Virus record (IMG/VR): IMGVR_UViG_3300037418_000840
Direction: 5' to 3' (one strand)
Origin: a virus
Lineage: Duplodnaviria; Caudoviricetes
DNA: 64,000 bases
Each line of letters opens with the position of its first letter. The stretch's first letter is position 1. Below, piece by piece: positions 7,459 through 60,636 of the stretch. A program made the translations under genes and the position numbers. Under the pieces are notes generated by a model. It was not told the DNA's origin. It did not search any database and saw nothing but the letters and a program-made list of their open reading frames with translations.

Positions 7459-8178
7459 ATGATCGACCATCCGTGCCCCGAAACACGTTCACGCGTGCTC
7501 CTCATCCAAGGTTTGCCCGGTTCCGGGAAGACGACGTTGGCCCGTCACATCAAAGAGCGCCTCAATGCAGTCCACATCAACGCGGACTGGGCACGCACGA
7601 CCATCACGTCACACTTGGGTTTCAAGTTCGAGGACCGCGTGAAACAGGCAACGGCGCTTGGTCAGATGGCACGATTGATCCAGGACAACGGCCAGTGGGT
7701 GATCGTCGACTTCGTATGCCCATTGCCTCAAACGCGTCACGCCTTCATGTATCACTTCCTCAAGCGCAGTGACGTATTCAGCGTATGGATGGACACCATC
7801 AAAGAGGGTCGCTTCGAAGATACGAACAAGATGTACAAGAAGCCGGCCGAGGATGCATATGACTATCGGGTCTTGAACTATCTCGATGATGACATGTTCA
7901 ACCGCGTGGCTGACGAGATCGTGACCCAAGTGACGGCAGGCCACGCCACGTTCTACATCCGCTACAACACGCTGTCCGACGGCAAGTCCAAGCAGTGGCG
8001 TGTGATCCGGGCCTTGACCGGCGAAGAAACGCTGTGTGATTCATTCGATCTTCGCGGCCATATGGTTCCCGCGATGACCATCGAACACGACGTGCGCAAA
8101 TGGAATGTGGGAGTCACTGGCTTCGGCGCCTTCCTTACCAAAGAAGACGGCACAGTCCAATTCGTTCTCAAGTATTGA
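7459..8178 (+). CDS. adenylyl-sulfate (APS) kinase-like P-loop kinase with C-terminal extra domain
   Basis: LLIQGLPGSGKTTLA Walker A, INADWAR, VIVDFVCP, WMDTIKEGRFEDTNKMY, as in phage CysC-like proteins; AAGGA SD. Confidence 0.72.
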   Translation: MIDHPCPETRSRVLLIQGLPGSGKTTLARHIKERLNAVHINADWARTTITSHLGFKFEDRVKQATALGQMARLIQDNGQWVIVDFVCPLPQTRHAFMYHFLKRSDVFSVWMDTIKEGRFEDTNKMYKKPAEDAYDYRVLNYLDDDMFNRVADEIVTQVTAGHATFYIRYNTLSDGKSKQWRVIRALTGEETLCDSFDLRGHMVPAMTIEHDVRKWNVGVTGFGAFLTKEDGTVQFVLKY

Positions 8179-8185
8179 GGCCCTC

Positions 8186-9310
8186 ATGCTAGGTTATGAT
8201 TTGATCGTTGTCGGCGCTGGTATGACGGGTGCTACCTTCGCGCGTGTAAAGGCCGAGCAGTACCATGCGCGGGTGCTGGTCATCGATCAGCGTCGTCATA
8301 TCGGCGGCAACTGTTACGACCGCTATGAGCGTGGCTTTGGTTTGGTCCACATGTATGGTCCTCATCTATTCCATACGAATAGTGAGAAGATTGTGAACTT
8401 CCTTTCGCGATTCACTGACTGGGTGCCGTACGAGCATCGTGTCCAGGTCGAGGTTCATGGCGAACGCCACCCCATGCCGGTCAACATGGAAACCATTGAG
8501 CGCCTGTTCCCTTCTCACATCGCGGACTCGATGCTCGCCACCTTGACTGAAGTCTGTAACGTGGGTGACACCTTGTCGCTCATGGAGCTTAAACAGATGA
8601 CCGAGCAGTTCAGCAATCTGGTGCCGCTGTACCAGATCGTATTCGAGAAGATCTTCCGACCGTATTCAGAGAAGCAGTGGGGGACGTCGATCGACCGCGT
8701 GGACGAAACGGTTTTGAAGCGAGTGCCTTTACGTCTCAGCTACGACAGCCGCTACTTCACTGATCGGTTCCAAGCTCTTCCTGGGGAAGGTTATACTGAG
8801 ATGTTCAGCAACATGCTGGATCATCCGAATATCCATGTAATGACCGGCACTCCTTGGTCAGCTATCGAGCGCTTCTGGTCACCGCAGGATACACAGGTCT
8901 TCTGGACTGGATCAATCGACCAACTGCTGGACTACAAGTTCGGCCCACTGCCCTACAGATCACTGACTTTCAGTCATGTGTCAGGCCCTGCACTCCCCGT
9001 AGGGACTGTCAACATGCCGATGGACGTACACTATACGCGGGTCACTGACCAGTCGTTCATCAATACGCATCCAGTGCGAGACACGCATCTGCTGACCTAC
9101 GAAACGCCGATGGACTACGATCACACGAATCCTGATCACGTGCCGTACTATCCAGTGGCTGCGGGCAAACACCGATACGAACAGTACGTGGCAGAAGCCG
9201 AGGCTGGCGATCTGCCATATATCTTTGGTGGCCGACTTGGGTCCTTCCAGTATTTGAATATGGACCAAGCGTGTGCTCAGGCCCTCAACCTCGCAGGATA
9301 TAAAGAATGA
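8186..9310 (+). CDS. glf: UDP-galactopyranose mutase
   Basis: FAD motif LIVVGAGMTG; RRHIGGNCYD, HMYGPHLFHT, YSEKQWG, YFTDRFQALP, PYYP, GRLGSFQYLNMDQ. Confidence 0.93.
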   Translation: MLGYDLIVVGAGMTGATFARVKAEQYHARVLVIDQRRHIGGNCYDRYERGFGLVHMYGPHLFHTNSEKIVNFLSRFTDWVPYEHRVQVEVHGERHPMPVNMETIERLFPSHIADSMLATLTEVCNVGDTLSLMELKQMTEQFSNLVPLYQIVFEKIFRPYSEKQWGTSIDRVDETVLKRVPLRLSYDSRYFTDRFQALPGEGYTEMFSNMLDHPNIHVMTGTPWSAIERFWSPQDTQVFWTGSIDQLLDYKFGPLPYRSLTFSHVSGPALPVGTVNMPMDVHYTRVTDQSFINTHPVRDTHLLTYETPMDYDHTNPDHVPYYPVAAGKHRYEQYVAEAEAGDLPYIFGGRLGSFQYLNMDQACAQALNLAGYKE

Positions 9311-10086
9311 TCATCAGTCAGCGTTCCAAGTTCGTCTTCATTCATAATCCCAAGGTGGCAGGCACGTCGATCCGCACGGCCATCGGAGACCGTCACGACT
9401 GGTCAACTCATTTCTGGCATCAGGGCTGGTCCGAAGAGGCGCAGCGAGTTGTCGACTTGGCGCACATACCCTATCGTGATCTGCCCGACGATGTTAAGAG
9501 CATTATCAGTCAGTCGTTTACCTTCGGCTTCGTCCGCGATCCGATGTCTCGCTTCTGGGCGTCGCTTGCTGAATTCCGTCGTCAGCATGCAGATTGGGAA
9601 GAACTGGCCAGAATGCCGGCCGAAGGCTTACTGAATCACGTGTTGACCCCGGCTGCCATTCGTCACGACTGGCGATTCACCCACTTCTGTCCACAACACG
9701 CGTTCTTCTACGATGGGCGAAAGTGCGTGGCCGACTTCGTGGGACACCACGAAACATTTGCTCGTGATTGGGCACGCATCCAAGTGATGATCGGCACTGA
9801 TTTCAAACCGTTGGACAATGCCCGCCATCGTGGGACCACTGATGATGAGCCGTTGACCAAGCAGGGGTTCGCTAAGTTCCTCAATCTATACGCGATGGAC
9901 TACGCGCTGTTTGGCTACGATATCCCGGCAGAGCCCAACTTGGATGACGGATATCCTGAGTCAACGCATTGGTCCCGTGTCGAATCCATCCATACGCCAT
10001 ACTTACAGGTCAATGCGGAGCTTGAAGCGCTGATGACCGAAGGGGAGCGTGCGGCCTATAAACAGAAGCTCAAATCCACGCTATGA
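9307..10086 (+). CDS. PAPS-dependent sulfotransferase (Sulfotransfer_2 / CHST-like)
   Basis: 5'-PSB motif FIHNPKVAGTSI, 3'-PB motif FGFVRDPMSRFWAS, HFCPQ; ATGA overlap with glf. Confidence 0.85.
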   Translation: MIISQRSKFVFIHNPKVAGTSIRTAIGDRHDWSTHFWHQGWSEEAQRVVDLAHIPYRDLPDDVKSIISQSFTFGFVRDPMSRFWASLAEFRRQHADWEELARMPAEGLLNHVLTPAAIRHDWRFTHFCPQHAFFYDGRKCVADFVGHHETFARDWARIQVMIGTDFKPLDNARHRGTTDDEPLTKQGFAKFLNLYAMDYALFGYDIPAEPNLDDGYPESTHWSRVESIHTPYLQVNAELEALMTEGERAAYKQKLKSTL

Positions 10087-11399
10087 AGATCCTGTTCACA
10101 CTGTTCGAAATCCAAGACTTCGGTGGCATAGCCGCCGATCTTGTATTCAAGAAGAAAGGTCTCGAGGAAGCAGGGCACGAAGTGGACATCGTGTATCTCC
10201 GCCATTCGGACAAGCCCAACTACGTGCGACGCGTGGTCGGTGCCGGTCGTCAGGGTAATTACGACATCGGCGGCGGGATCACGGTCAATACCCTGTCCGG
10301 CTTCTACGGGGTTCCTGTCATGTCCTATGCGTCCAAGCGACTGATGCGCAAATGGTGGGCCTTCGCCGATCGCTATGACATGGTGATCCACGAAATCCCG
10401 GGACCAAATCCTGCGAAGACTGGGGCTATCGATGTTAAGGGCTACTGGCGACAGGTGTACGATGTCGAGACACCGCAGATTATCTCAGCCCATGACGCGC
10501 ATTTCCGTGACATGTATCCACACCTGATCGAAGTAGCTGACAAGGTACGTGGTATCTCATGCACGAATCCGGCCGGCTATGTGGCCCTCGAATGGTTCCC
10601 GGGTCCACGCGCGTTTATCGGTGCGCCGCATCCAGTCCTCAACTGGAAGAAGCTCCCCGCATGGGAGGACCGTGACCCGAATGCCGTATGTGCCCACGTA
10701 TGGAAAGCGTGGAAGCACATGGATCAGGCAGTACGCAGTGCCCGTTATCTTGAAGACGCGAACCTGATCATGGCCGGTGATGGGATCGAACGTCGCTACA
10801 TGACTTCGGTCGATAAGTGCAAGCCCAAGTACAAGGGTGTATGGGCACGAGCCGAGCGGGCAGGCATGGACTACAAGGGGATGTTGACCCCGAGTCAGCT
10901 GTCGAAGGTGTATCGCAACGCCAGAGTCATGGTCGATTGCAGTTGGAGCGCCAAGTTCGCGAAGCTGAACAATCACTTCAACCGGTCTATCATCGAGGGG
11001 TACAACCATGGATGCGTCCCAATATGTGTCGACATCAACATGGCTGAACCCGGTATGCAGGTCCAGATGTTCCAGAAGGGGAAGACTCACTTCGAGATAG
11101 CGCACGATGCGACACCGCGTCAACTCGCTGAACTGATTGATCATGTGGTGAACCTGCCACCAGAGAAGGCTGCGGCGATGGTCAAGCGTGGCCGTCGCAT
11201 CCTCCTCGACTACTTCGACTATCGCAAGACCAGTCTCGAGTATATCAAGCTTGCGAAGGGAAAGGCAGCCGGCGTCTATCCGAAGCTCGAAGTAGGGAAG
11301 ACCAACAAGACGATCAAGCGTAATGTCGAGCGCTTCATGACCAAGGTCGATCGTCAGATTGCCAAGCGTGATCGCAAAGCCGCTGAGCAGGAGGAATGA
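10083..11399 (+). CDS. GT-B fold glycosyltransferase (GT4-like)
   Basis: MKILF...DFGG...GLEEAGHEVDIV N-terminus; YRNARVMVDCS...IIEGYNHGCVPI C-terminal donor-binding region; ATGA overlap. Confidence 0.8.
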   Translation: MKILFTLFEIQDFGGIAADLVFKKKGLEEAGHEVDIVYLRHSDKPNYVRRVVGAGRQGNYDIGGGITVNTLSGFYGVPVMSYASKRLMRKWWAFADRYDMVIHEIPGPNPAKTGAIDVKGYWRQVYDVETPQIISAHDAHFRDMYPHLIEVADKVRGISCTNPAGYVALEWFPGPRAFIGAPHPVLNWKKLPAWEDRDPNAVCAHVWKAWKHMDQAVRSARYLEDANLIMAGDGIERRYMTSVDKCKPKYKGVWARAERAGMDYKGMLTPSQLSKVYRNARVMVDCSWSAKFAKLNNHFNRSIIEGYNHGCVPICVDINMAEPGMQVQMFQKGKTHFEIAHDATPRQLAELIDHVVNLPPEKAAAMVKRGRRILLDYFDYRKTSLEYIKLAKGKAAGVYPKLEVGKTNKTIKRNVERFMTKVDRQIAKRDRKAAEQEE

Positions 11400-11743
11400 T
11401 GAAGGACTATTTCAGTCCCCTTGGTGTTAAATACGAGGCGTCCAATCATCAAGTGTGGCCCTCGCTTCCTATCTGTCAGTATCTCGTTGGCACTCCCTGG
11501 AATGATACGGCACTGGCTGCCGTTTCATCAACACGCCCGTCGTCGATCCGTGTTGTGCGTCACGACGGGGAGATCAAGGACAATGGCAGCATGTGGCGAG
11601 TTACGGTTTTTCTCGACCACCTAGGCTTAATCTCCAACGTTGAACAGGAAGTAGTGGTCGATGCGCCTGAAGGTGTAGTAAACGGCCATGAGTTCTGTCG
11701 CCGTCTCGAAAAATATCCACACTGGCCCGCTGATTCGTTCTAG
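11396..11743 (+). CDS. peptidase-inhibitor I78/potato-I-like small protein
   Basis: QYLVG...IRVV...RVTVFLDHLGLISNV pattern; family call tentative. Confidence 0.5.
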   Translation: MMKDYFSPLGVKYEASNHQVWPSLPICQYLVGTPWNDTALAAVSSTRPSSIRVVRHDGEIKDNGSMWRVTVFLDHLGLISNVEQEVVVDAPEGVVNGHEFCRRLEKYPHWPADSF

Positions 11744-11752
11744 GAGTTGATC

Positions 11753-12196
11753 ATGGGATTCGAAGTCGTTCATCATGGAAAAGATTCACCAGAAGAAGTG
11801 CGACGCAAGCGTATCGCCAATCACATGTCGTATTGCACGCACTATCGACCGAAGGGGCTGAGCATCGCCACCGCTTGTCAAGTCGGATGCAATGCGCTGA
11901 AGGGTCCCTGTATCGACGGTCATACGCTACCAGACGTGCTGGACCGGTGCCCCAAGTGGGAACGCCGTTCACTGGCCGAAGCCGAAGCACGGGCAGACGA
12001 GCTCGAACGTGCGTTCGATCGCATGGAGAAGGTGGCACCTGTCATCAATGAATGGCGGTCCAAGCCCCCGATCGGAAAGGACGGAACTGTCGATTGCCCG
12101 ATATGTGGTGGCCAACTGTTCCTCAGCCAATCGGCGCGCAACGGTCACGTGAGTGCCAAGTGTACGACCGCAGGCTGTGTGTCGTTCATCGAGTAA
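11753..12196 (+). CDS. Cys-rich hypothetical protein
   Basis: AGGAG SD; multiple Cys/His including CPICG...HVSAKC. Confidence 0.65.
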   Translation: MGFEVVHHGKDSPEEVRRKRIANHMSYCTHYRPKGLSIATACQVGCNALKGPCIDGHTLPDVLDRCPKWERRSLAEAEARADELERAFDRMEKVAPVINEWRSKPPIGKDGTVDCPICGGQLFLSQSARNGHVSAKCTTAGCVSFIE

Positions 12197-12227
12197 CGGC
12201 CGTTACGATTAACATCGGAGACTCTAT

Positions 12228-12530
12228 ATGCTACCCGCATTCTTTACTCGCATCCAGACGCTGTTGACTACGGGCCAACCCAAAAACTATGCTGGCAGCG
12301 ACATGGCGAAAGCTGATTGGGCTGCGCTTGGACGTACGATTGAAATCCTCGACAACGCAAACAGGTTGCCGACAGGTTGGAAACCTGCGCCTCCCCTCAT
12401 GACGCATCAAATGCATCAGGCCATGCAAAATGCGATAGACAGTGGACAACCAGTCTGGCCAGCCATCCTGAACGTGATGCCGAACCCGCCGGCCGATGGA
12501 CGTACGCTGACCGTCAACGACACAGTCTAA
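12228..12530 (+). CDS. hypothetical protein
   Basis: 100 aa, GGAG SD. Confidence 0.6.
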   Translation: MLPAFFTRIQTLLTTGQPKNYAGSDMAKADWAALGRTIEILDNANRLPTGWKPAPPLMTHQMHQAMQNAIDSGQPVWPAILNVMPNPPADGRTLTVNDTV

Positions 12531-12534
12531 CCAA

Positions 12535-12852
12535 GTGTGTGACGGATATCACCCGCTCGTAGTCAACTGCCGGACCGATGATTACGATGAGTACATCGGA
12601 CGTCCTGGTCCGTGGGGCAATCCTTTCATAGTGGGTACGCACGGGACACGCAAGCAAGTGTGCGCCTTCCACCGTAAATGGATTGATGGATTAATACGCG
12701 GTCCTAACGGGGAACGACCTCCATCCAAGAAAGAGATCAGGCGCAAACTCAAAGGCAAGCGTCTAGGATGTTGGTGTAAGCCAAAGGAATGCCACGGTCT
12801 TTACTTGGCTCATATCGCCAATCGAAAGCAAACGAAGGGGCTTTTCAGATGA
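12535..12852 (+). CDS. DUF4326 domain protein
   Basis: YIGRPGPWGNPF ... LKGKRLGCWCKPKECHG signature. Confidence 0.85.
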   Translation: MCDGYHPLVVNCRTDDYDEYIGRPGPWGNPFIVGTHGTRKQVCAFHRKWIDGLIRGPNGERPPSKKEIRRKLKGKRLGCWCKPKECHGLYLAHIANRKQTKGLFR

Positions 12853-13793
12853 GGTACTTCGTCCTCTCATACAATCGGCCCGACCTGCAGATTACTCTGC
12901 AGTCAATGCCACCCGACCTCCTCAGCCAGATCGAGTTGATGGTGGTCCCAAAAGAATACAAGCAGTACAAACGTGGATGGTATGCGTCGAAGGTCAAGGC
13001 CATCCACACGTGGCCTGACTACGTGGACTGTGTACCGAAGAAACGCCACTGGATCGCCCAGAATGCGAAGGACGACTACATCTTGATCGATGACGACGTG
13101 AATCTCTACGTCTGGTCGCGTAAGCGCGACAAGTTCGTTCGTGCACTGGATTTGCCTAAGCGCTTTGCCTACGAATTCATGGAGGGGCTACCTTCACAAT
13201 TCGAGACCTACGCGTCAGTTGCTGCGGCCAACAAGTTCATGGCTGACCCGTTCGTTCGTCAACACGGTCTAGTCAAGGACGACAGTGTGGGCTTCGTCAT
13301 GTCTGGATTCGCGAAGGGCACGACTAAGAAGGTGCAGATGGGTTGTACCTTTGTCTACACAGACATAGACCTGCCTCTCCAAGTGTTCCAGGAACACAAG
13401 ACCTCGTGTATCTACTATGGTCTGTGCTACAACCATTCGGGAGTCAAGGCTCTTCAGAATACGGGAACCTCGACCTACAGATCAGACTTCCTCAAGCTGG
13501 ATTCAGCGATCCGTATGGCTGTCCTCTATCAAGGGATCATCACCGGAGCCAAATGGAATAACAACAAGGGCGGTGGGGTTACGCTCCAGAAGTGGTTCAA
13601 TCGAGTAAAGACCGGGGTCACTGCCGCCCATGTAAATAAGACACAGGAATGGTTACGTACCATCTGTGCTGAGCACGGCCTCCGTTCGTGTCCGGACTTC
13701 TATCGCTACGATATGGAGACACCGAAAGACTACATCTTTCAGAAGTACGAAGAGCTCTGGGAAGAGAAGCTAATCAAAAGGAAACGTCGATGA
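12849..13793 (+). CDS. GT-A fold glycosyltransferase, TAGT / base-J glucosyltransferase-like
   Basis: FVLSYNRP N-terminus, VVPKEYKQY, KKRHWI, YILIDDDV (DxD); ATGA overlap. Confidence 0.7.
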   Translation: MRYFVLSYNRPDLQITLQSMPPDLLSQIELMVVPKEYKQYKRGWYASKVKAIHTWPDYVDCVPKKRHWIAQNAKDDYILIDDDVNLYVWSRKRDKFVRALDLPKRFAYEFMEGLPSQFETYASVAAANKFMADPFVRQHGLVKDDSVGFVMSGFAKGTTKKVQMGCTFVYTDIDLPLQVFQEHKTSCIYYGLCYNHSGVKALQNTGTSTYRSDFLKLDSAIRMAVLYQGIITGAKWNNNKGGGVTLQKWFNRVKTGVTAAHVNKTQEWLRTICAEHGLRSCPDFYRYDMETPKDYIFQKYEELWEEKLIKRKRR

Positions 13794-14278
13794 ATATTCG
13801 ATTGACCACCATGTGTCCCGACCCGTTCAACCGGTATCCACAGTTGTTCGACATCTGGCCGGAACCTTACCTTACGTCAGCGGTCGAGGCTACGAATGAG
13901 GACTGGGGTGATGGCAGCGTCTTCTTCATAGAAGCCGATCATCAAGTGGTCGGCATCACCGGCTTGTTCTTCGAAGAGGAAGACAAGGAGAACGCGTTCC
14001 TTCGTTGGACGGGTGTCATTCCGTGCATGCGTCGTCGTGGGATTACTAGTTACATAGTCGATCTCATGGCGCTGATGGCTGTCAACCTGTGCAAGCGCAC
14101 CGGTTACCTAATCGAACTCGTTCCCTACAACGATTACGGTCACTTCGAGAGCGGTGCCTACCCGTTCTTCACGGACCTTGGATTCAAACAACTATCTGGC
14201 ATCAAGCACGAACAGACCGATTGGCAGGTTCGTGTTATGGGCCTTGCTCTCGAGAAATACAGGACAAAGAATGCCTAA
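13790..14278 (+). CDS. GNAT family acetyltransferase
   Basis: VVGITGL...AFLRWTGVIPCMRRRGITS (motif A R/QxxGxx), FFTDLGF. Confidence 0.75.
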   Translation: MNIRLTTMCPDPFNRYPQLFDIWPEPYLTSAVEATNEDWGDGSVFFIEADHQVVGITGLFFEEEDKENAFLRWTGVIPCMRRRGITSYIVDLMALMAVNLCKRTGYLIELVPYNDYGHFESGAYPFFTDLGFKQLSGIKHEQTDWQVRVMGLALEKYRTKNA

Positions 14279-15260
14279 GCTAAAATCTCAAAAGGGACAG
14301 CAGTCCCTATTCGATGGCGAAGCGCCGTATCTGTTTGCGCCCAACGAACAGAACAGTCCGGAATCGATGGCCAAGTTCTGGATCGAGCGCCACAAGATCT
14401 ATTTGAAGCGCTTTCACCTGAAGGCCAAGGCTCCGTGGACTACCGATCCCGTGCTTTCCAACTACCGATTCTGCAACATCTATCGTGAGCTCGATACGGT
14501 CAGCAAGTGGATCATCGAGAAAGTGATCGAGCCCTATGCCAAGAACGACAATCTGTGGTTCATGCTCGCCATGTCGCGGATCATCAACTGGCCGGACACT
14601 TTGCAGGCTATCATGGACGCTGGCGCATGGCCCGAGCGTCGTTGGGACCCTGATGCGGTCTACGCAGTGATGAACGACATAAGGGCACAGAAACGCAAGG
14701 TCATCACTGGAGCCTACATCATCAACTCGGTGTTCCCCAAGGGGGTGAATCCGCCGGATCGCAGCAAGAATTACTACATCCCGTTCTACGGACTTGACCC
14801 TCTGTGGAAAGACCGCCAGTCCCTTCGCGATGCTTTCCGTGATAATCAAGCCGAGGCTGTCGACACACTGCGCCAGTATCAAGGATGGGGTGCCTTCATG
14901 GCCTATCAAGTGATCGTCGATTTGACCTACAGCAGACGATGGCTTGGCCGGGCATCGGACATCGAGACGTTCACCAGTCCAGGACCGGGGACCACGCGCG
15001 GTATGAACCGCCTTTTGTTCGGTGGCCGTAAGCCCCAACTCAGGGCTGACCAGTTGAATGAGCCGATGATCAAGGCACGAGCCGAGGTCAATGCGGCAGC
15101 GCGCGCCGTTGTGCCCGCTAAGTGGTGGACTGACGATTTCAAGACTGGGTTCACAAATCTGTCGGCAGCCAATTTCAGTAACCTGTGCTGCGAGTACGAC
15201 AAATATTGTCGTGTGATCAGCGGTGAAGGAGAGCCCCGTGCCGGATACAAAGCCCGATGA
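14271..15260 (+). CDS. 5-hydroxymethyl-dU DNA kinase-like (aGPT-Pplase1 family)
   Basis: FWIERHKIY...PWTTDPVLSNYRFCNIYRELD, RIINWPDTL, GWGAFMAYQVIVDL, GPGTTRG helical DNA-glycosylase-like signature. Confidence 0.82.
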   Translation: MPKLKSQKGQQSLFDGEAPYLFAPNEQNSPESMAKFWIERHKIYLKRFHLKAKAPWTTDPVLSNYRFCNIYRELDTVSKWIIEKVIEPYAKNDNLWFMLAMSRIINWPDTLQAIMDAGAWPERRWDPDAVYAVMNDIRAQKRKVITGAYIINSVFPKGVNPPDRSKNYYIPFYGLDPLWKDRQSLRDAFRDNQAEAVDTLRQYQGWGAFMAYQVIVDLTYSRRWLGRASDIETFTSPGPGTTRGMNRLLFGGRKPQLRADQLNEPMIKARAEVNAAARAVVPAKWWTDDFKTGFTNLSAANFSNLCCEYDKYCRVISGEGEPRAGYKAR

Positions 15261-15627
15261 TGGACGACGCAAGTCCAAGATCGGTATCGAGATGAGCCCC
15301 GAACTACGCGACGTAGCCAACCGGTTGATGGTCCGTCTCGATACCGATTCAATCCATGAAGTAGTGCGCCGTGCTCTGTATTACTACGAACGCGCTCTCA
15401 ACAAGAACGCGCCGCCTCCGGTTAAGACAAAGCTCCATGACTTCGTTGTCCACTTGTATGAGAAGGAAGACGGTAGCTATGACATCGTAGGTCACCGCCA
15501 CTGCGGTAATGGCGGCGATGCCCTGTACGGGAACAAGCCCAACGAAGAAGATGCACGGGCTGAGGTTAAGAGTCGTTTCCCTTTTGAACATGAGGTAGTA
15601 GTTCACCCACTAAAGCCTCGTGCGTAA
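15238..15627 (+). CDS. ribbon-helix-helix DNA-binding protein with C-terminal domain
   Basis: GTG 15238 after AAGGAG; KIGIEMSPELRDVANRLMVRLDTDSIHEVVRRAL fits the RHH/CopG pattern. Confidence 0.65.
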   Translation: MPDTKPDDGRRKSKIGIEMSPELRDVANRLMVRLDTDSIHEVVRRALYYYERALNKNAPPPVKTKLHDFVVHLYEKEDGSYDIVGHRHCGNGGDALYGNKPNEEDARAEVKSRFPFEHEVVVHPLKPRA

Positions 15628-15661
15628 ATAGAGGCCGTTGTCAACCATCACGTACCTTACC

Positions 15662-16813
15662 ATGAAAGTCATCTACGCAAACAATCCTGATCACGGACTG
15701 GAGACGGCCCTACGGTCCATCATCCACGAGGGTGCCACGTGCGATAGTCGCAATGGGCCGGTCCTTCGTTTCCGCACGCCAGTCACTTCGGTGTATAACA
15801 CGCCGCGCCATCGTGTGTCGTTCAACAAGGTGCGTGATGCCAATCCGTTCCTTCACTTGATGGAAAGCTTGTGGATGCTAGCCGGTCGCAACGACGTTGA
15901 GTTCGCGGCCTACTATGCCAAGCAGATGCTCCAGTACACCGACGACGGAAAGACCCTCAACGGTGCCTATGGCTATCGCTGGCGCAAGCACTTCGGCTAC
16001 GATCAGCTGGAAGCAGTGATCGAAGAACTCAAGAAGACCAAGGGCAACAGCCGGCGTTGCGTGATCCAAATGTGGGACGCCAGCCGCGATTTCTATCCAG
16101 GCGAAGATTCCTGGGCAGTCAAGCGAGAGTCCGATCTTCTGAACCAAACGTCGAAGGACCTGCCGTGCAACACGGCCCTCATGTTCGATGCCCAACTCGG
16201 CCATCTCGACATGACGGTCGTCAACCGCAGTAACGACACGATCTGGGGCTGCTACGGGGCGAACGCTGTGCACTTCTCGTTCCTCCTGGAATACATGGCG
16301 GATCGGATCGGCATCCCGGTCGGAACCTACTACCAAGTGTCGAACAATCTTCACGCGTATCTGGAGTTCGATATCACGAAGCGGTTCATCGCGTGGGATC
16401 AACAGACGCAGCACGCAACCATCGACGACGATGCGTTTCAGCCGGAGCCGGATTTTGGTATCGCGACTCCCTACACTGCGCATCTGATTCATTCCATGGC
16501 CTTGAACGCCGGGATCACCGGGTGGGACGACGAGCTCCATCATCTGGTCGACAACTACAGGACCACCGAGTATTCACGGTACTCCATTGCCTTCTTCGAT
16601 CTGGTCGCGGCCCCCATGTGTGCGGCCTACAACTGCTACAAGAGCAACGGCCCGGAGGCCGGTCTCGCCGTACTCAGTACGGCAAACGAGAAGTACAAAC
16701 GCACGCTGTCCATCGACGTGGCAAACGATTGGATCCTAGCCGGTGCTCGTTGGCTCCGTCGTCGGCCGTCCATCAATCGCGGCCTGAGCCAGCCCACCGA
16801 CTTTGGTCTGTAA
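15662..16813 (+). CDS. thymidylate synthase-family protein, probable dUMP hydroxymethylase
   Basis: ANPF...ESLWMLAGRND, GAYGYRWR, SRRCVIQMWD, DLPCN (catalytic Cys), RSNDTIWGCYGAN, NNLHAY; Asn at the uracil-specifying site; TTG 15638 is an alternative start. Confidence 0.85.
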   Translation: MKVIYANNPDHGLETALRSIIHEGATCDSRNGPVLRFRTPVTSVYNTPRHRVSFNKVRDANPFLHLMESLWMLAGRNDVEFAAYYAKQMLQYTDDGKTLNGAYGYRWRKHFGYDQLEAVIEELKKTKGNSRRCVIQMWDASRDFYPGEDSWAVKRESDLLNQTSKDLPCNTALMFDAQLGHLDMTVVNRSNDTIWGCYGANAVHFSFLLEYMADRIGIPVGTYYQVSNNLHAYLEFDITKRFIAWDQQTQHATIDDDAFQPEPDFGIATPYTAHLIHSMALNAGITGWDDELHHLVDNYRTTEYSRYSIAFFDLVAAPMCAAYNCYKSNGPEAGLAVLSTANEKYKRTLSIDVANDWILAGARWLRRRPSINRGLSQPTDFGL

Positions 16814-16841
16814 GTCAATCCATCTACAAGCGAGGACCCTC

Positions 16842-17303
16842 ATGAGCAATCCGAATGACCGTCAGGTAGGCGGCACCTACTATCGATCGAAGTACCAACA
16901 CTGGGATATGGCGACCGACACGCTGATGCGCCATCTGGAAGGCGCGGCCTCGAAATACCTGTCGCGCTTCGGCAATAAACCCGGTGAACCGGCATCCAAA
17001 GACCTGGAGAAAGCCGGCCACTACATCGAAAAGCTGATCGATCAGGCGCGACACAACGTCAACTTCGAACCCCTGGCCGTGATCCAGAATCGTATGGGCG
17101 TCGTGCCCGATACCTACGTCAATTGGTTTGTCGAGGGTCTGTCGGGACCTCCGGCTGGTGAAGAGAACGTGTCGGTCTTGCGCATTCTTGCCAGCTGGAA
17201 TTCGTTCAGCGAGCTCGAAGACGCACTGGCCGTAGTCAACAAGCTGAAATCGCACCACGTTGCTATCGAACAAGAGCACGCGGCGTCCAAAGGGATGGAC
17301 TAA
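16842..17303 (+). CDS. DUF3310 (T7 gp1.7-like nucleotide kinase family) protein
   Basis: NDRQVGGTYY...QHWD...KYLSRFGNK...DLEKAGHYIEKL. Confidence 0.8.
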   Translation: MSNPNDRQVGGTYYRSKYQHWDMATDTLMRHLEGAASKYLSRFGNKPGEPASKDLEKAGHYIEKLIDQARHNVNFEPLAVIQNRMGVVPDTYVNWFVEGLSGPPAGEENVSVLRILASWNSFSELEDALAVVNKLKSHHVAIEQEHAASKGMD

Positions 17304-17304
17304 C

Positions 17305-17790
17305 ATGGATTTGGGACCGACTCCTAACCAGAAGATCGTGGTCTGTGACATCGACGGATGCCTCATCGATTCGAGTCATCGCACTGGCCTCTATTTCTCT
17401 GGTGATCATGCAGGTTACTTTGCAGCATCGAAAGACGATAAGGTGATCCCTCAGGGTCAGCACGTGTACCGTGCGTTCTACGACGTGCCGGGTGTACTTC
17501 AACTGTTCGTCACAAGCCGTGGCGACTGGGGAACCTATCGAGAAGTGACCCTTGGTCAACTGCGGGACTTCGTCGGTCCCAAGATCGCTGATCATCAGCT
17601 GTTGATGCGGCCCAAGGGTGTTCAGGGCCTGGACGTGATGTCGGACGAAGTGTACAAGGCGTGGGCTGTGGAGAACGCAGGCTATTCTCTGGCAGATGTC
17701 TGGATGGCTTTCGATGATCGCGAATGCGTTGTCGAAATGTGGCGACGTAGGGGTGTCGTCTGCTACCATACGCAGCCCGGCTTGTACTGA
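17305..17790 (+). CDS. HAD-family phosphatase (PNKP 3'-phosphatase-like)
   Basis: VCDIDGCL (motif I), VTSR (II), LLMRP...K (III), AFDDR...VVEMWRR (IV). Confidence 0.85.
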   Translation: MDLGPTPNQKIVVCDIDGCLIDSSHRTGLYFSGDHAGYFAASKDDKVIPQGQHVYRAFYDVPGVLQLFVTSRGDWGTYREVTLGQLRDFVGPKIADHQLLMRPKGVQGLDVMSDEVYKAWAVENAGYSLADVWMAFDDRECVVEMWRRRGVVCYHTQPGLY

Positions 17791-51615: not shown

Positions 51616-54600
51616 TTATTGATCAGGGAACGCCGCCGTCGGAGGAGTGAAGTTTGCCGTGTATCGAGCAACGCCGTATGTGATACGGAAGTCGTTCAAG
51701 AATGCGGACAAGACAACGTTCCCTGCAACGTCAAGCGAGGTACTGTTTGCGCCGACAGCCAGTGGTGAAGTAGACGCCATCAACGCAGACGAACCGATAC
51801 TACCTGATCCGATGGATACGCCGTTTAGATAAAGCGTCACTGTACCTCCACTGCGAACCAAAGCAAGATGGAACCAAGTGTTCAATGTTACAGTGGTAGA
51901 GGTGCTTATGGTCACGGCCCACGCACTGCCTGATGAAGAAAGATAGGCTTGAAACACGCCGTTGTTCAGTTCCACCATCATCGGCGTATAGTTGTTGTTG
52001 CTCGTACGTTGCGCCCAAAAGCCATTTGACGCACTTCCAGAGTACGTACGTACGTACCACCAGCCTTCAACGGTCCAGTCAACCGCACTCCAAACGGGTA
52101 GCTGATTGTTAGGCACAGCAATCAACGTGGACTGATTACTTCCATCAAAATCTATGGACGAACCGTTGAACTTCGATTGCGACGTAACAATCGCAGTGTT
52201 GCCCAGAGTTTGTACAGTCTGTTGCAGTGCATTGTCCAAAACCCCCGTCGCAACGTCAGTGGCGTTGTACAGGAATGAAGTGTCCACAACGGCTGTTGAC
52301 AATGGGGCTATCGGTGGAGTGAACGTCGCAGTGTACACCGCACTTCCGTTCACTATACGCAGATCAGAGATAAATCCGTTGAAACCTTGTGTCGTTCCAT
52401 TTATAGCTTGTCCTATAAGAATAGGTTGGCTCGATCCAAGATTATCTGCGGCTGTGACCGTAGCTACTTGCACTCCGTTCTTGAACAAGCGCCAGACACC
52501 GAAGTTGTCACGCGTCAACGCCACGTGATACCACGTATTCAACGCCAACGCTGTGGAATCGGAATAAACAGTGTTGTTAGGTCCATCGTAGAATGCGAGT
52601 TGTCCAGACGCATTGACCTGCAATGCTGTAGCTTGTGCAGCAACAGCTGATCGTAGATCTACCAGATTACACGCATTCGAATTGACAGACTGCATGTACA
52701 TCCAGCACTCAATGGTGAACGCACCTGTGCCAAAACCAAATGATGAAGATGCGGCATACGACAGGTTGGTCCCACCTCCTGCGAAATAGCACGATCCCGC
52801 ATACTTTGACGAGGCATACGGCGTGCCGTTGTCCCCGAAAGGATTGAATCTACGAATCGCTGGCGTACCCCCTACCGAAATCGCCCAAGCATTCGTTGAA
52901 TTGTCGATCCAACGATTTGACTGACAGCTCAGGAAGTTCGTCCCAGTGATAGCCGTCAGCGGCGCTGTCGAGGGTGTAAAGTTTGCTGTGTAGACTCGCG
53001 AACCAAACACGACTCGCACGTTACTGACATGGCCTCCCCACACCGGATTCGTGCCCACATTGTTGTTACCGATGGCTGCCGCACCTATCCCGAGGTACAT
53101 GTTGGTCACACCGTGATTAAAGGTGTTCATCAACTGACCATCGAAGAAGAAGGTACAGGCCCCGGAACCTCCTACCTGAGTAATCGCAAAGTGGTGCCAC
53201 GTTCCGGCAGTCAGACTAATGTTGGACGAATTCGCATTGACGATGGTGACCCCGTCGCCATTCGAAAACTGGACCAACATCTGATAAGCACCACCAGTGA
53301 TGACCTGAACGCCAAGTGCCAGTTCGAAATTGTTCGTACCAGTCCGTCCCTTCTGCCACATGACATATTCACCAGCCGATCCGATGGTCGTGGGCAACGT
53401 CTCGAACATGGCCCACATTTCGATGGTGAACGTCTGATTACCTGGTGCTGCGGACGTGGACGCACCATAGGTCAGATACGATGCGGCCGCACCGTTCAAG
53501 TGTGTTGACCAATTCGATCCATAAGGAGTGAACGTCCCTTCAAACGGGCTGCCCGTCGAAGTCAGTGAGATCTGACTCGAAGGCATAGTCGCAGCGAACA
53601 CGTTATTGGCATACGCGTTCTGACCCGTCCCATGGACCAACAGGGCAACGTTGTTGAAATAGGTATCGCTTGAGATGCTGTTGGGAAATGCTGCTGAAGG
53701 AGCAGTAAATCCTGTCGTAGCGTATCGTGCGACACCCAACGTCACCCGGATGTCTTCCATGTAGCCCGTGAAGGGCATGGACGCCCAAGTGGCGTCAGCT
53801 CCTACCGTGAAGTAGTCACCCGTGCTGGACCCAACCGATCCACTCATGGCCGCACTTCCTACTTGCGTACCATTGATGAACAGATAGAGCGTGTTGCCCG
53901 AACGCATGGCCGCCACGTGTGACCACGCGTTAGCCGCTGGCGAACTGGTTGACGTCAAATCGGTAGAGTTGTTCCAATGGAAAGCCAGTTTGCCCGCGTT
54001 GAGATAGAACAACCAGTCACTGTTGGTGCCGTTTTTGGCACACCCCATGATCTGCGCAGTCTCACTGGCAGACGTAGGGTAGATCCAGGCTTCTGCTGTG
54101 AAGTTTACTGACCCAAGCTGAAGGTAGGTACCTCGTGCGCTCAGTGTTGGATACACACTGTTCGCCAGGGCGCCGCTGAAATACAACGAGGTAGTGCTGA
54201 ATTTGGACTGGGCGCTGCTTATCTGTGCCGTTCCGACCGTGAGCAGTTCGTGCTGCATCGCGTTGTCATAGACACCAGACGTGCCTGCCGTCTGTGCATT
54301 GTACAGTAAGGCCGTGCTCGCCACATTCGCTGGAATGGACGTGCTCGGGGTGAACGAAGCTGTGTACAGGGCAGTACCGTTGACAAGACGGAGACCCGTC
54401 AGATAACCACTGAAGAAATTGTGGGCAGTGAATCCGCTTTGATTGTTGTCGGCCCCCAACAGCACTGGTTGTGTCGCGCTATTCAATGCGCCGCTCACCG
54501 TCCCAGTCGTTGCGTCCAGCACGCCGTTGACGAAGAAGCGAACGGTTGATCCTTGACGGGTGATCGCCACGTGATTCCATGCACCCGGCACGATTTTCGC

Positions 54601-55707
54601 AGACGTGCCTGCAATCGAAGCGTTAGTTGCACCGAGGCCATACGTGAACTGCAAGAAGCCCGTATTCAGCGCTTGAAACATGAAGGCACACGAAGACGCG
54701 GTGCCAAATGTCCACCAGCTGAGCAACGACGTATTGACCAACGCGGGCATGTAGACCCAGGTCTCGAACGTGAAGTCGCCAGACAGCTGGAAATTGGAAC
54801 TCGCTCCAGTCTGCAAAAAGCCAGACGAACCATCGAACCAGCACGAGCCTCCATACGTAGTCGTGCTGTAGGGCGTGCTGTTGTCGCCGAACGGATTGAG
54901 TCGTTGTATCGCTACAGTGCCCGATGCCGTGAACGCATAGGCGTTCGTGCTGTTGTCCAAGAATCGATTGGACTGACAGGTCAACAGTGCCGTATTGGTC
55001 ACTGCCGTCAATGGCGATGTCGATGGAGTAAAGGCTGCCGTGTAGACCGCCGTGCCATTGACAACCCGCAGATTCGACAGATAACCGTTCAATCGCGTGG
55101 CACCCGTGCCCGCACCGAAACCGAGATACAGATTGGTCGCCGCGTAGGTCGACGAATCAGTCACTGTCGTTACCAGTGCTCCGTTGACGAACAATCGACC
55201 TGTGGTCCCTTGTCGTGCATAAGCTACGTGGATCCATGATCCAAGTGGGATGTCCGAAGTCGATGCGTCCTGCGCCGCGACTGTAGTTCCATTAGTGAAG
55301 GTCAGCGAACCGCCGCTCAAGCCCAGCGACCAGCCGCTGAGATTTGATGCATTACGTGTGTCGATGAACAACGCATTGTTTGACTGAGCTATCTCCAGAT
55401 TCACCCAGGTCTCGACTGTGAAGTCTGCGACACCGAATGCGAGGGCACTGGTAGCCGTCGCAGTCAGGTAGCCGGTCACGCCGTCAAACATGGTACTCCA
55501 GTTGGCTCCGTACGGCGTGAACGTACCCTCGGTCGCGTTACCTCCGTGACTAAGGGTCGGCAAGTTTGTTGCCTTGAACGTGTTGTTGGCCGCCCCGCTC
55601 GCCCCGTTACCATGCATTAACATGGCTACGTTCTTGAAGTTTGAATCGGTTGGAGCCACTACTGATCCGCTCTTCAGTGCAGCCAATAGAAGTCGATTTG
55701 AGCCCAT
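51616..55707 (-). CDS. multi-LamG/concanavalin A-like adhesin (six domains)
   Basis: Six copies of FT(V/F/A/I)ExW ... WxH(V/F/L)A ... NG/DG ... R(V/I/L); 1363 aa. Confidence 0.88.
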   Translation of the reverse strand: MGSNRLLLAALKSGSVVAPTDSNFKNVAMLMHGNGASGAANNTFKATNLPTLSHGGNATEGTFTPYGANWSTMFDGVTGYLTATATSALAFGVADFTVETWVNLEIAQSNNALFIDTRNASNLSGWSLGLSGGSLTFTNGTTVAAQDASTSDIPLGSWIHVAYARQGTTGRLFVNGALVTTVTDSSTYAATNLYLGFGAGTGATRLNGYLSNLRVVNGTAVYTAAFTPSTSPLTAVTNTALLTCQSNRFLDNSTNAYAFTASGTVAIQRLNPFGDNSTPYSTTTYGGSCWFDGSSGFLQTGASSNFQLSGDFTFETWVYMPALVNTSLLSWWTFGTASSCAFMFQALNTGFLQFTYGLGATNASIAGTSAKIVPGAWNHVAITRQGSTVRFFVNGVLDATTGTVSGALNSATQPVLLGADNNQSGFTAHNFFSGYLTGLRLVNGTALYTASFTPSTSIPANVASTALLYNAQTAGTSGVYDNAMQHELLTVGTAQISSAQSKFSTTSLYFSGALANSVYPTLSARGTYLQLGSVNFTAEAWIYPTSASETAQIMGCAKNGTNSDWLFYLNAGKLAFHWNNSTDLTSTSSPAANAWSHVAAMRSGNTLYLFINGTQVGSAAMSGSVGSSTGDYFTVGADATWASMPFTGYMEDIRVTLGVARYATTGFTAPSAAFPNSISSDTYFNNVALLVHGTGQNAYANNVFAATMPSSQISLTSTGSPFEGTFTPYGSNWSTHLNGAAASYLTYGASTSAAPGNQTFTIEMWAMFETLPTTIGSAGEYVMWQKGRTGTNNFELALGVQVITGGAYQMLVQFSNGDGVTIVNANSSNISLTAGTWHHFAITQVGGSGACTFFFDGQLMNTFNHGVTNMYLGIGAAAIGNNNVGTNPVWGGHVSNVRVVFGSRVYTANFTPSTAPLTAITGTNFLSCQSNRWIDNSTNAWAISVGGTPAIRRFNPFGDNGTPYASSKYAGSCYFAGGGTNLSYAASSSFGFGTGAFTIECWMYMQSVNSNACNLVDLRSAVAAQATALQVNASGQLAFYDGPNNTVYSDSTALALNTWYHVALTRDNFGVWRLFKNGVQVATVTAADNLGSSQPILIGQAINGTTQGFNGFISDLRIVNGSAVYTATFTPPIAPLSTAVVDTSFLYNATDVATGVLDNALQQTVQTLGNTAIVTSQSKFNGSSIDFDGSNQSTLIAVPNNQLPVWSAVDWTVEGWWYVRTYSGSASNGFWAQRTSNNNYTPMMVELNNGVFQAYLSSSGSAWAVTISTSTTVTLNTWFHLALVRSGGTVTLYLNGVSIGSGSIGSSALMASTSPLAVGANSTSLDVAGNVVLSAFLNDFRITYGVARYTANFTPPTAAFPDQ

Positions 55708-60586: not shown

Positions 60587-60610
60587 CACGGTTCCCTTTG
60601 AATGTTCAAA

Positions 60611-60636
60611 GGGCCGGTCCAATTCCGGACCGGCCC
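60611..60636 (-). terminator. perfect 10-bp hairpin after the endolysin gene
   Basis: GGGCCGGTCC aattcc GGACCGGCCC followed by TTTG on the - strand. Confidence 0.6.

Follow-up and report, generated by a model that had tools for sequence, protein, structure and literature searches.

In phage M6, the DNA modification derives from 5-hydroxymethyldeoxyuridine (hmdU, also 5-hmdU) (PMC8989533). The experimentally shown 5-hmdU DNA kinase (5-HMUDK) is the P-loop protein M6 gp54 (PMC8989533, Table 1), and the 2021 reconstitution required only gp54 and gp51, an amino-acid:DNA transferase (AADT) (PMC8989533). A role for the UDP-galactopyranose mutase Glf in a DNA glycosylation cluster was proposed earlier for the Pootjesviridae (PMC13326640). 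Here we analyse a 64,000-nucleotide stretch of viral DNA (IMG/VR record IMGVR_UViG_3300037418_000840), which we call the window. Positions 7459-17790 of the window hold 15 plus-strand open reading frames (ORFs) in one abutting run (Table 1). This cluster carries a thymidylate synthase (TS) homologue and an aGPT-Pplase1 protein (Pplase1 from here on), and with them Glf, a GT-B glycosyltransferase, a GT-A glycosyltransferase of the TAGT family, a sulfotransferase and a protein resembling adenosine 5'-phosphosulfate (APS) kinase. We lean, by a modest degree, towards the interpretation that the cluster encodes an hmdU-type DNA hypermodification system giving glycosyl-hmdU DNA with a sulfated glycan, a chemistry that we infer throughout. 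The nearest cultured relative of the source virus is the jumbo Ralstonia phage phiRSL1, and part of the evidence comes from the related cluster in that phage.

Conservation of the gene set across related loci

A search for related loci that starts from the single sulfotransferase sequence finds none. An alignment of Pplase1 retrieves 65 IMG/VR loci, for which we determined gene content by tblastn and a phmmer matrix (individual loci are given by L numbers). All of the six closest loci, phiRSL1 among them (Pplase1 47-65% identical), have APS-kinase-like, sulfotransferase and TAGT genes, and no kinase or sulfotransferase homologue is found in the remaining 59. An independent start from the sulfotransferase adds five further metagenomic loci, and four of these have the whole set. 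Two loci, L072 and L073, carry it on a different phage backbone, in another gene order and with a topoisomerase IB present; the fifth, L071, combines kinase, Glf, sulfotransferase and TAGT genes with one uncharacterized gene. The kinase, sulfotransferase and TAGT genes occur together in 11/11 related loci, and the Pplase1 and TS genes join them in 10 of the 11. This is the outcome of the homologue search that the sequence-only reading of this stretch had put forward as a check, and it shows the sulfotransferase, APS-kinase-like and TAGT genes travelling with the TS homologue and Pplase1. The conserved core is arranged in at least three gene orders, including that of the cultured phiRSL1.

The genes for sugar supply come in two types. 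Type B, which includes the window and L006, L009, L069, L070, L072 and L073, has Glf, the GT-B and one TAGT. Type A (phiRSL1, L004, L005 and L007) has an APH-like kinase and three TAGT paralogues, together with an NTP_transferase whose match in L007 is weaker than those in phiRSL1, L004 and L005. L071 has Glf and TAGT and lacks a homologue of the window GT-B. Judged from these genes, the sugar supply is variable between loci and the predicted sulfation stays. As a separate observation, a GIY-YIG (homing-endonuclease-type) ORF lies between the Pplase1 and APS-kinase-like genes of one type A locus (L005:10875-11813).

The related loci also show what the decorating genes replace. We built profiles from 52 homologues of the M6 kinase gp54 and from 39 homologues of the amino-acid transferase gp51. 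Of the 59 other Pplase1 loci, 48 have a match to the gp54 profile and 39 to the gp51 profile; the 11 sulfo-type loci have neither. On the window's own 172-kb contig the gp51 profile finds nothing, and the gp54 profile finds only the APS-kinase-like gene, at 12.9 bits (E 0.006). A library-based profile search of the contig finds neither gp54 nor gp51, but it misses the TAGT gene too, so that its negatives on this contig count as weak evidence of absence. Because of this distribution (kinase and transferase in 48 and 39 of 59 loci, against 0/11 in the sulfo-type loci), the Pplase1/TS core is predicted to take either of two mutually exclusive decorating arms. One further locus, L010, has Pplase1, the TS homologue, DUF3310 and TAGT without sulfotransferase, P-loop kinase or amino-acid transferase, and by its gene content looks like a third state, a plain kinase-less glycosylating variant. 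The sequence-only reading had proposed that the amino-acid arm is replaced here by sugar, sulfate and acetyl chemistry. The sugar and sulfate part of this proposal gains from the co-occurrence in 10/11 loci, the mutual exclusion and the TAGT family assignment; the acetyl part is particular to the window and lies outside the conserved module, with no homologue of the GNAT gene in the related loci.

The TS homologue and the modified base

The TS homologue matches PF00303 with E 8e-17 and falls far under the NCBIfam TS equivalog cut-offs. Among solved structures it comes nearest to MilA, a hydroxymethylase, and not to a thymidylate synthase. In an alignment of 58 TS homologues to E. coli ThyA, the source of the residue numbering used here, the catalytic C146 is kept in 58/58, as are D169 and N177, and the motifs KDLPCN, NRSND and GAN of the window protein are those of the M6 enzyme. 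At ThyA position 177, Asn selects uracil and Asp selects cytosine; with Asn at this position, a dCMP hydroxymethylase is ruled out. The substitution D169N marks 5-hydroxy-dCMP synthases (PMC13326640), and this identity is ruled out as well, residue 169 being D and not N.

The contig has this one TS homologue only. It also has a dCMP deaminase gene outside the window (G000:C1:11818-12177), and at the limited sensitivity of the contig profile search no dUTPase is found on it. Because of the C146/N177/D169 signature, the motifs shared with M6, the closeness to MilA, the shortfall against the TS equivalog models and the presence of a lone TS homologue, the base is most likely 5-hmdU, which would be made before replication. 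Separately, the TS homologue of L006 has an intein-like insertion of ~330 aa right before the catalytic Cys (KDLP|C...THN|CNLQ, ~L006:10961-12900).

The sugar genes

The Glf protein matches PF03275 with E 5e-48 and clears the cut-off of the NCBIfam equivalog TIGR00031 (312.2 against 303.75). Its N-terminus has the GAGMTG motif of an FAD-binding Rossmann fold. By these matches it is predicted to be a UDP-galactopyranose mutase that makes UDP-galactofuranose.

The GT-A protein matches PF20691 at 31.7 bits (cut-off 27.5) and phrog_842 with E 6e-14. By hhalign to strong TAGT members (73-187 bits), the family assignment has a probability of 99.6% and E 2e-24, and the DDD motif is invariant across 13 homologues. 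The protein has a basic C-terminal extension and an isoelectric point (pI) of 9.3. The base J glucosyltransferase JGT was reportedly assigned to the TAGT family by Iyer et al. in 2013 and in later work. The TAGT gene sits four genes upstream of the TS homologue, and the two are also linked in 10/11 related loci. We propose that the TAGT GT-A is the enzyme that would glycosylate hmdU in DNA.

The GT-B protein has a weak Pfam match to Glyco_trans_1_2, below the cut-off, and no Pfam AGT match. Its AlphaFold2 (AF2) model, with a mean local confidence score (pLDDT) of 73.5, matches PimA, MshA, TarM and BshA, all of family GT4, with Foldseek E 4e-12. An Atlas feature search places it with viral GT-B clusters, with a T4 AGT-family cluster at rank 7 (score 0.98), which we take as a lead only. 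PDB sequence searches with TAGT or GT-B give nothing useful. The GT-B is strongly basic (pI 9.45, net charge +18). Across the cluster, TAGT, GT-B, Pplase1 and the DUF4326 protein are strongly basic (pI 9.3-9.9), which fits DNA binding, and Glf, the sulfotransferase and the TS homologue are not basic.

The sulfate genes

The sulfotransferase matches PF03567 (Sulfotransfer_2) with E 3e-8 (34.6 against 22 bits) and phrog_3347 with E 7e-22. Both motifs for binding 3'-phosphoadenosine 5'-phosphosulfate (PAPS) are present, PKVAGTS for the 5'-phosphosulfate (5'-PSB) and RDPMSR for the 3'-phosphate (3'-PB). The nearest cellular sulfotransferases (36-43% identity), from Burkholderia cenocepacia and Pantoea ananatis, are in O-antigen-type clusters with Glf and GT4/GT2 glycosyltransferases. 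As these homologues lie in such clusters with Glf, the family appears to act on sugars; this points to a sugar as the acceptor and to an arm captured from surface-polysaccharide genes.

The APS-kinase-like protein has a P-loop kinase domain at residues 8-130, which matches Pfam APS_kinase at 58 bits (cut-off 21). Its best PDB matches are all APS kinases, and it shares the DWARTT motif with 2yvu. By comparison with E. coli CysC, the P-loop, the Arg of DGDNxR, the Phe of LGF and the Arg of DR are kept. The APS-kinase-like and sulfotransferase genes are paired in 12/12 loci (the window and its 11 relatives); the simplest explanation of so strict a pairing is that the first enzyme supplies PAPS and the second uses it. 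Residues ~138-239 of the kinase (window 7870-8178) form a conserved C-terminal domain of ~100 aa (YIRYNT...WRVI...EH...K.NV) in the phiRSL1-like lineage; the copies of L005, L006, L007, L072 and L073 lack it. No fold is assignable to the C-terminal 105 residues (Atlas scores 0.76, TM <= 0.51).

Points against a sulfated DNA glycan and possible other targets for its enzymes

Several observations weigh against a sulfated glycan on DNA. The sulfotransferase is acidic, not basic; since it is non-basic and its relatives act on polysaccharide, it could target a non-DNA glycan or a nucleotide sugar. The APS-kinase-like protein matches the NCBIfam APS kinase models with E 1e-14, but its score of 52 is well short of the equivalog cut-off of 138.7. 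In 12/12 phage copies NAD stands in place of DGD. VCP takes the place of ISP, and the lid has diverged. Taken alone, the window TAGT barely clears its Pfam cut-off, and generic GT4 enzymes make up the 50 best Foldseek hits of the GT-B. No TS or Pplase1 gene lies within 10 kb of the L071 block. As the contig is incomplete, absences from it are provisional. In the full-text literature that we searched (excluding Iyer et al. 2013, NAR 41:7635; Weigele & Raleigh 2016; and Hutinet et al. 2021), neither a sulfated DNA glycan nor the DNA chemistry of phiRSL1 is described, and we find no chemical evidence for the DNA of the window phage.

The generic relatives of the GT-B, the isolated L071 block and the O-antigen loci that carry the nearest cellular relatives of both the sulfotransferase and Glf would all fit a different target, in which Glf, GT-B, sulfotransferase and kinase decorate virion proteins, host lipopolysaccharide or capsule and merely adjoin the hmdU pathway, whose product might or might not be glycosylated. 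We judge this very unlikely. The linkage with TS and Pplase1 is kept across gene orders and phage backbones, and even the L071 block retains a TAGT glycosyltransferase of the DNA type. The window cluster has no protein with a membrane segment and no flippase or polymerase, its GT-B is strongly basic, and it sits among replication genes (primase, SSB, UvsX) and not among structural ones.

The divergence of the kinase bears on a second alternative. The APS-kinase-like protein could phosphorylate hmdU in DNA, as a non-homologous replacement for 5-HMUDK that works with Pplase1, or could phosphorylate a sugar, with PAPS then taken from the host. The altered DGD motif and the low equivalog score count in its favour, as does gene position: 5-HMUDK, the P-loop kinase of the M6-type pathway, is directly upstream of Pplase1 in 26/48 M6-like loci, and the APS-kinase-like gene adjoins Pplase1 in L006 and L007, and in L005 but for the GIY-YIG ORF. 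This reading is nonetheless unlikely in our view, with the kinase paired throughout with a sulfotransferase and never with an AADT, which would use a phosphate ester. Its sequence matches are APS kinases without exception. It retains the Arg, Phe and Arg that contact APS, the ENxRR motif is canonical in the copies of L072 and L073, and neither the kinase nor any other cluster protein matches the 5-HMUDK family PF18748.

Pplase1 and the question of sulfate as a leaving group

The window Pplase1 matches PF18723 (HMUDK_hel) with E 2.5e-46, and its gene is next to the TS homologue. No P-loop is found in its sequence. It aligns with M6 gp55 at 34% identity; the family of gp54, PF18748, is distinct from PF18723, and gp54 adjoins gp55 in M6. 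The AF2 model (pLDDT 89.5) has no PDB match by Foldseek at E <= 0.001, and a PDB sequence search with the Pplase1 profile gives nothing useful. By VIA-align, the best match of the model is the 5-phosphomethyldeoxyuridine (5-PmdU) glycinyltransferase PaMx11 gp46 (8z2n), with Z 10.6 over 221 residues and a root mean square deviation of 4.2. It is followed by some 40 helix-hairpin-helix (HhH) DNA glycosylases (Ogg, AlkA, EndoIII) and queuine-salvage enzymes at Z 7-10, and then by Z 3.4. Because of the missing P-loop, the homology to gp55 and the HhH-type structural matches, Pplase1 is on this model a DNA-base-handling HhH fold and not a kinase, and the assignment of aGPT-Pplase1 as the 5-hmdU DNA kinase in the sequence-only reading has to be given up. 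Pplase1 probably engages a flipped-out base. A demonstrated function of Pplase1 is absent from the literature searched.

The fold of the 8z2n match, that of an amino-acid:DNA transferase, opens another possibility for the sulfate, which is that it serves as a leaving group. In place of the P-loop 5-hmdU DNA kinase, the APS kinase and sulfotransferase would then generate 5-sulfooxymethyl-dU in DNA, a transferase (perhaps Pplase1) would displace the sulfate, and the mature DNA would be sulfate-free. A phosphate ester has that role in the known pathway (PMC8989533), and the kinase/AADT and APS-kinase/sulfotransferase pairs are strictly exclusive beside a shared Pplase1. The counterevidence lies with the sulfotransferase, which is not basic and whose nearest cellular homologues are sugar enzymes from Glf-containing polysaccharide clusters, and with the glycosyltransferases, which require a free acceptor hydroxyl and not an activated one. 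L010, moreover, has TAGT, Pplase1 and TS without sulfotransferase, kinase or AADT, and its gene content implies that glycosylation needs no activation. We therefore hold a sulfate leaving group to be improbable. The specific form of it in which sulfate activates hmdU in DNA and Pplase1 itself displaces the sulfate and installs the final group we consider more improbable still. It would be the counterpart of the phosphate-based kinase/amino-acid-transferase route and, if true, would give Pplase1 a first function. The existence of two exclusive arms on the Pplase1/TS core narrows the roles that Pplase1 may have.

Proposed pathway

For a sulfated glycan on hmdU, which we continue to favour, the genes suggest the following order of steps. 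The TS homologue would convert dUMP to 5-hmdUMP, with the dCMP deaminase encoded elsewhere on the contig feeding dUMP, and the HAD phosphatase and DUF3310 protein may reshape the nucleotide pool. The phage polymerase would then incorporate hmdU instead of T. In the DNA, the TAGT GT-A would attach a sugar to hmdU through its hydroxymethyl oxygen, in the manner of the base J glucosyltransferase. From host UDP-galactopyranose, Glf would make UDP-galactofuranose, and the GT-B, basic and GT4-like, would add galactofuranose to the chain; either transferase might act first. The APS-kinase-like enzyme would turn host APS into PAPS, with which the sulfotransferase would sulfate a sugar hydroxyl. The HhH-fold Pplase1, common to hmdU hypermodification clusters, would engage the flipped-out base. 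Acetylation by the GNAT may follow, as an optional step of the window phage only. The product would shield the DNA from host nucleases, adding bulk and negative charge.

Gene content of the cluster and its contig

The sequence-only reading had named ten gene families in the cluster, and all ten are found on the plus strand where it placed them, by Pfam, PHROG, NCBIfam and AF2/Foldseek. Beyond these, the cluster has a DUF4326 gene and four small family-less ORFs (Table 1). Most ORF junctions are overlaps of 4-8 bases or gaps of 3-31 bases. A scan for promoters and terminators gives counts at or under the shuffled expectation.

Table 1. Genes of the cluster, with window coordinates and the matches on which each assignment is based.
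Feature	Coordinates	Strand	Evidence
APS-kinase-like P-loop kinase, proposed PAPS supplier	7459-8178	+	PF01583
UDP-galactopyranose mutase (Glf), predicted	8189-9310	+	PF03275, TIGR00031
PAPS-dependent carbohydrate-type sulfotransferase	9307-10086	+	PF03567, phrog_3347
GT-B glycosyltransferase, GT4-like (retaining type)	10083-11399	+	AF2 model + Foldseek
Small ORF, 115 aa, no family	11396-11743	+	Pfam/PHROG empty; weak match to phiRSL1 ORF242
Small ORF, 149 aa, window-specific	11747-12196	+	phrog_31210 on last 44 residues only
Small ORF, 100 aa, window-specific	12228-12530	+	no matches (Pfam, PHROG, related loci)
DUF4326 protein	12535-12852	+	PF14216 E 1e-21
TAGT-family GT-A glycosyltransferase	12849-13793	+	PF20691, phrog_842
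GNAT acetyltransferase	13790-14278	+	PF00583
aGPT-Pplase1 / HMUDK_hel	14271-15260	+	PF18723
Small ORF, 134 aa, start uncertain, window-specific	15223-15627	+	no matches (Pfam, PHROG, related loci)
TS-superfamily dUMP hydroxymethylase-type enzyme	15662-16813	+	PF00303
DUF3310-like protein	16803-17303	+	phrog_5839; PF11753 below cut-off
HAD phosphatase, PNKP-phosphatase type (HAD_PNKP)	17260-17790	+	PF25109

The accessory genes differ in how widely they are kept. The GNAT protein (24.8 bits against a cut-off of 20.7; likely start ATG at 13790) is an optional extra of the window phage, outside the conserved module. The DUF4326 protein (pI 9.9) recurs beside Pplase1 in clusters of both kinds, sulfo-type (L004, L069 and L070) and M6-like kinase-type (L032, L050, L056 and L058), and may belong to the shared core. 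The DUF3310-like protein scores 19 bits with PF11753 and matches phrog_5839 with E 7e-24 and the DUF3310 region of PHROGs annotated as "nucleotide kinase"; it possibly acts on the nucleotide pool. Its homologues follow the TS gene in M6-like loci and not in the sulfo-type relatives. The slot after TS is thus filled by a DUF3310-like protein in the window and M6-like loci, and by an unrelated conserved protein, like phiRSL1 ORF229, in seven sulfo-type loci. The HAD protein (38 bits against a cut-off of 27.6) is kept downstream of TS in phiRSL1, L004, L009, L069 and L070, and is a candidate nucleotidase that would reshape the nucleotide pool.

The source contig, a viral sequence from IMG/VR, has 171,762 bases and zero tRNA genes and is ~72% complete. 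It encodes the structural proteins of a myovirus (terminase, portal, tail tube, baseplate) as well as the replication proteins that surround the cluster. Its TerL is 57% identical to that of phiRSL1, and the contig is a phiRSL1-like jumbo myovirus. By Megablast, the cluster has no nucleotide-level match to cultured phages. Elsewhere in the window there are two very large minus-strand ORFs, at 51616-55707 (1363 aa) and 56339-60622 (1427 aa).

Comparison with known systems

The closest counterpart of the cluster is in phiRSL1 (NC_010811; Mieseafarmvirus), where ORF228-238 are syntenic with it and are followed by a sigma factor, SSB and UvsX. Identities to the window are 59% for the APS-kinase-like protein, 36% for the sulfotransferase, 49% for Pplase1, 61% for the TS homologue and 49% for the HAD protein. 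The place of Glf and the GT-B is taken in phiRSL1 by three TAGT paralogues together with an APH-like kinase and an NTP_transferase, and the GNAT and DUF3310 genes of the window are missing there. GenBank labels the phiRSL1 genes as APS kinase, sulfotransferase and glucosyltransferases. As phiRSL1 is cultured and carries this sister module, the question of a sulfated glycan on DNA is directly testable there.

With the phages M6, PaMx11, ViI and PhiW-14 (PMC5889632, PMC8989533), the window shares a hydroxymethylase-type TS (42% identical to that of M6) and aGPT-Pplase1 (34%). The pathway of those phages modifies hmdU in DNA after replication, and the same is predicted for the window. The window lacks the M6-type PF18748 kinase, the Pplase2 amino-acid:DNA transferase and every one of the tailoring enzymes (PLP, radical SAM and FAD), and has glycosyltransferases, a sulfotransferase and an APS-kinase-like gene in their place. 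If the product is as proposed, the group added to the DNA would be negatively charged, not neutral bulk and not positively charged, which bears on packaging in very large capsids and on the evasion of restriction, CRISPR and glycosylase defences.

Base J of kinetoplastids combines a TAGT-family GT-A with a source of hmU, as predicted for the window, and the first product would in both cases be O-glycosyl-hmU. The hmU of base J comes from the JBP dioxygenase acting on DNA, and that of the window would come from the TS homologue before replication. Unlike in base J, the glycan is here predicted to be built up further with sugar, sulfate and possibly acetyl groups. If this holds, phage DNA would bear a furanose-containing, base-J-like glycan, and the DNA glycosyltransferases together with a sulfotransferase acting on a glycan on DNA would be useful for tagging hmU in DNA.

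The O-antigen-type clusters of Burkholderia cenocepacia and Pantoea ananatis have, like the window, Glf and a family-2 sulfotransferase, in their case beside GT4 or GT2 glycosyltransferases. They also have a Wzx-type transporter and a WecA-type initiating transferase, and lack TS, Pplase1 and TAGT. The sugar and sulfate arm was probably acquired from clusters of this kind.

Finally, one syntenic region of the Pootjesviridae (Rhizobium phage RL38JI, PMC13326640) unites DNA glycosyltransferases and a TS-superfamily enzyme with a phage-encoded UDP-galactose mutase, and the window has a similar combination. The base of the Pootjesviridae is 5-hydroxycytosine, with the diagnostic D169N, whereas D169 and N177 of the window enzyme point to hmdU. 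The report on these phages mentions no sulfotransferase or APS kinase (a text search for "sulf" finds SDS-PAGE only), and the window has both. Because Glf has this precedent, the furanose part of the proposed glycan is less new than the sulfate. If the sulfate is on the DNA, it would make the first sulfated nucleic-acid base found in the literature searched. Set beside these systems, what appears new in the window is an hmdU hypermodification whose predicted decorating arm is a glycan with sulfate, present here in its Glf/GT-B form.

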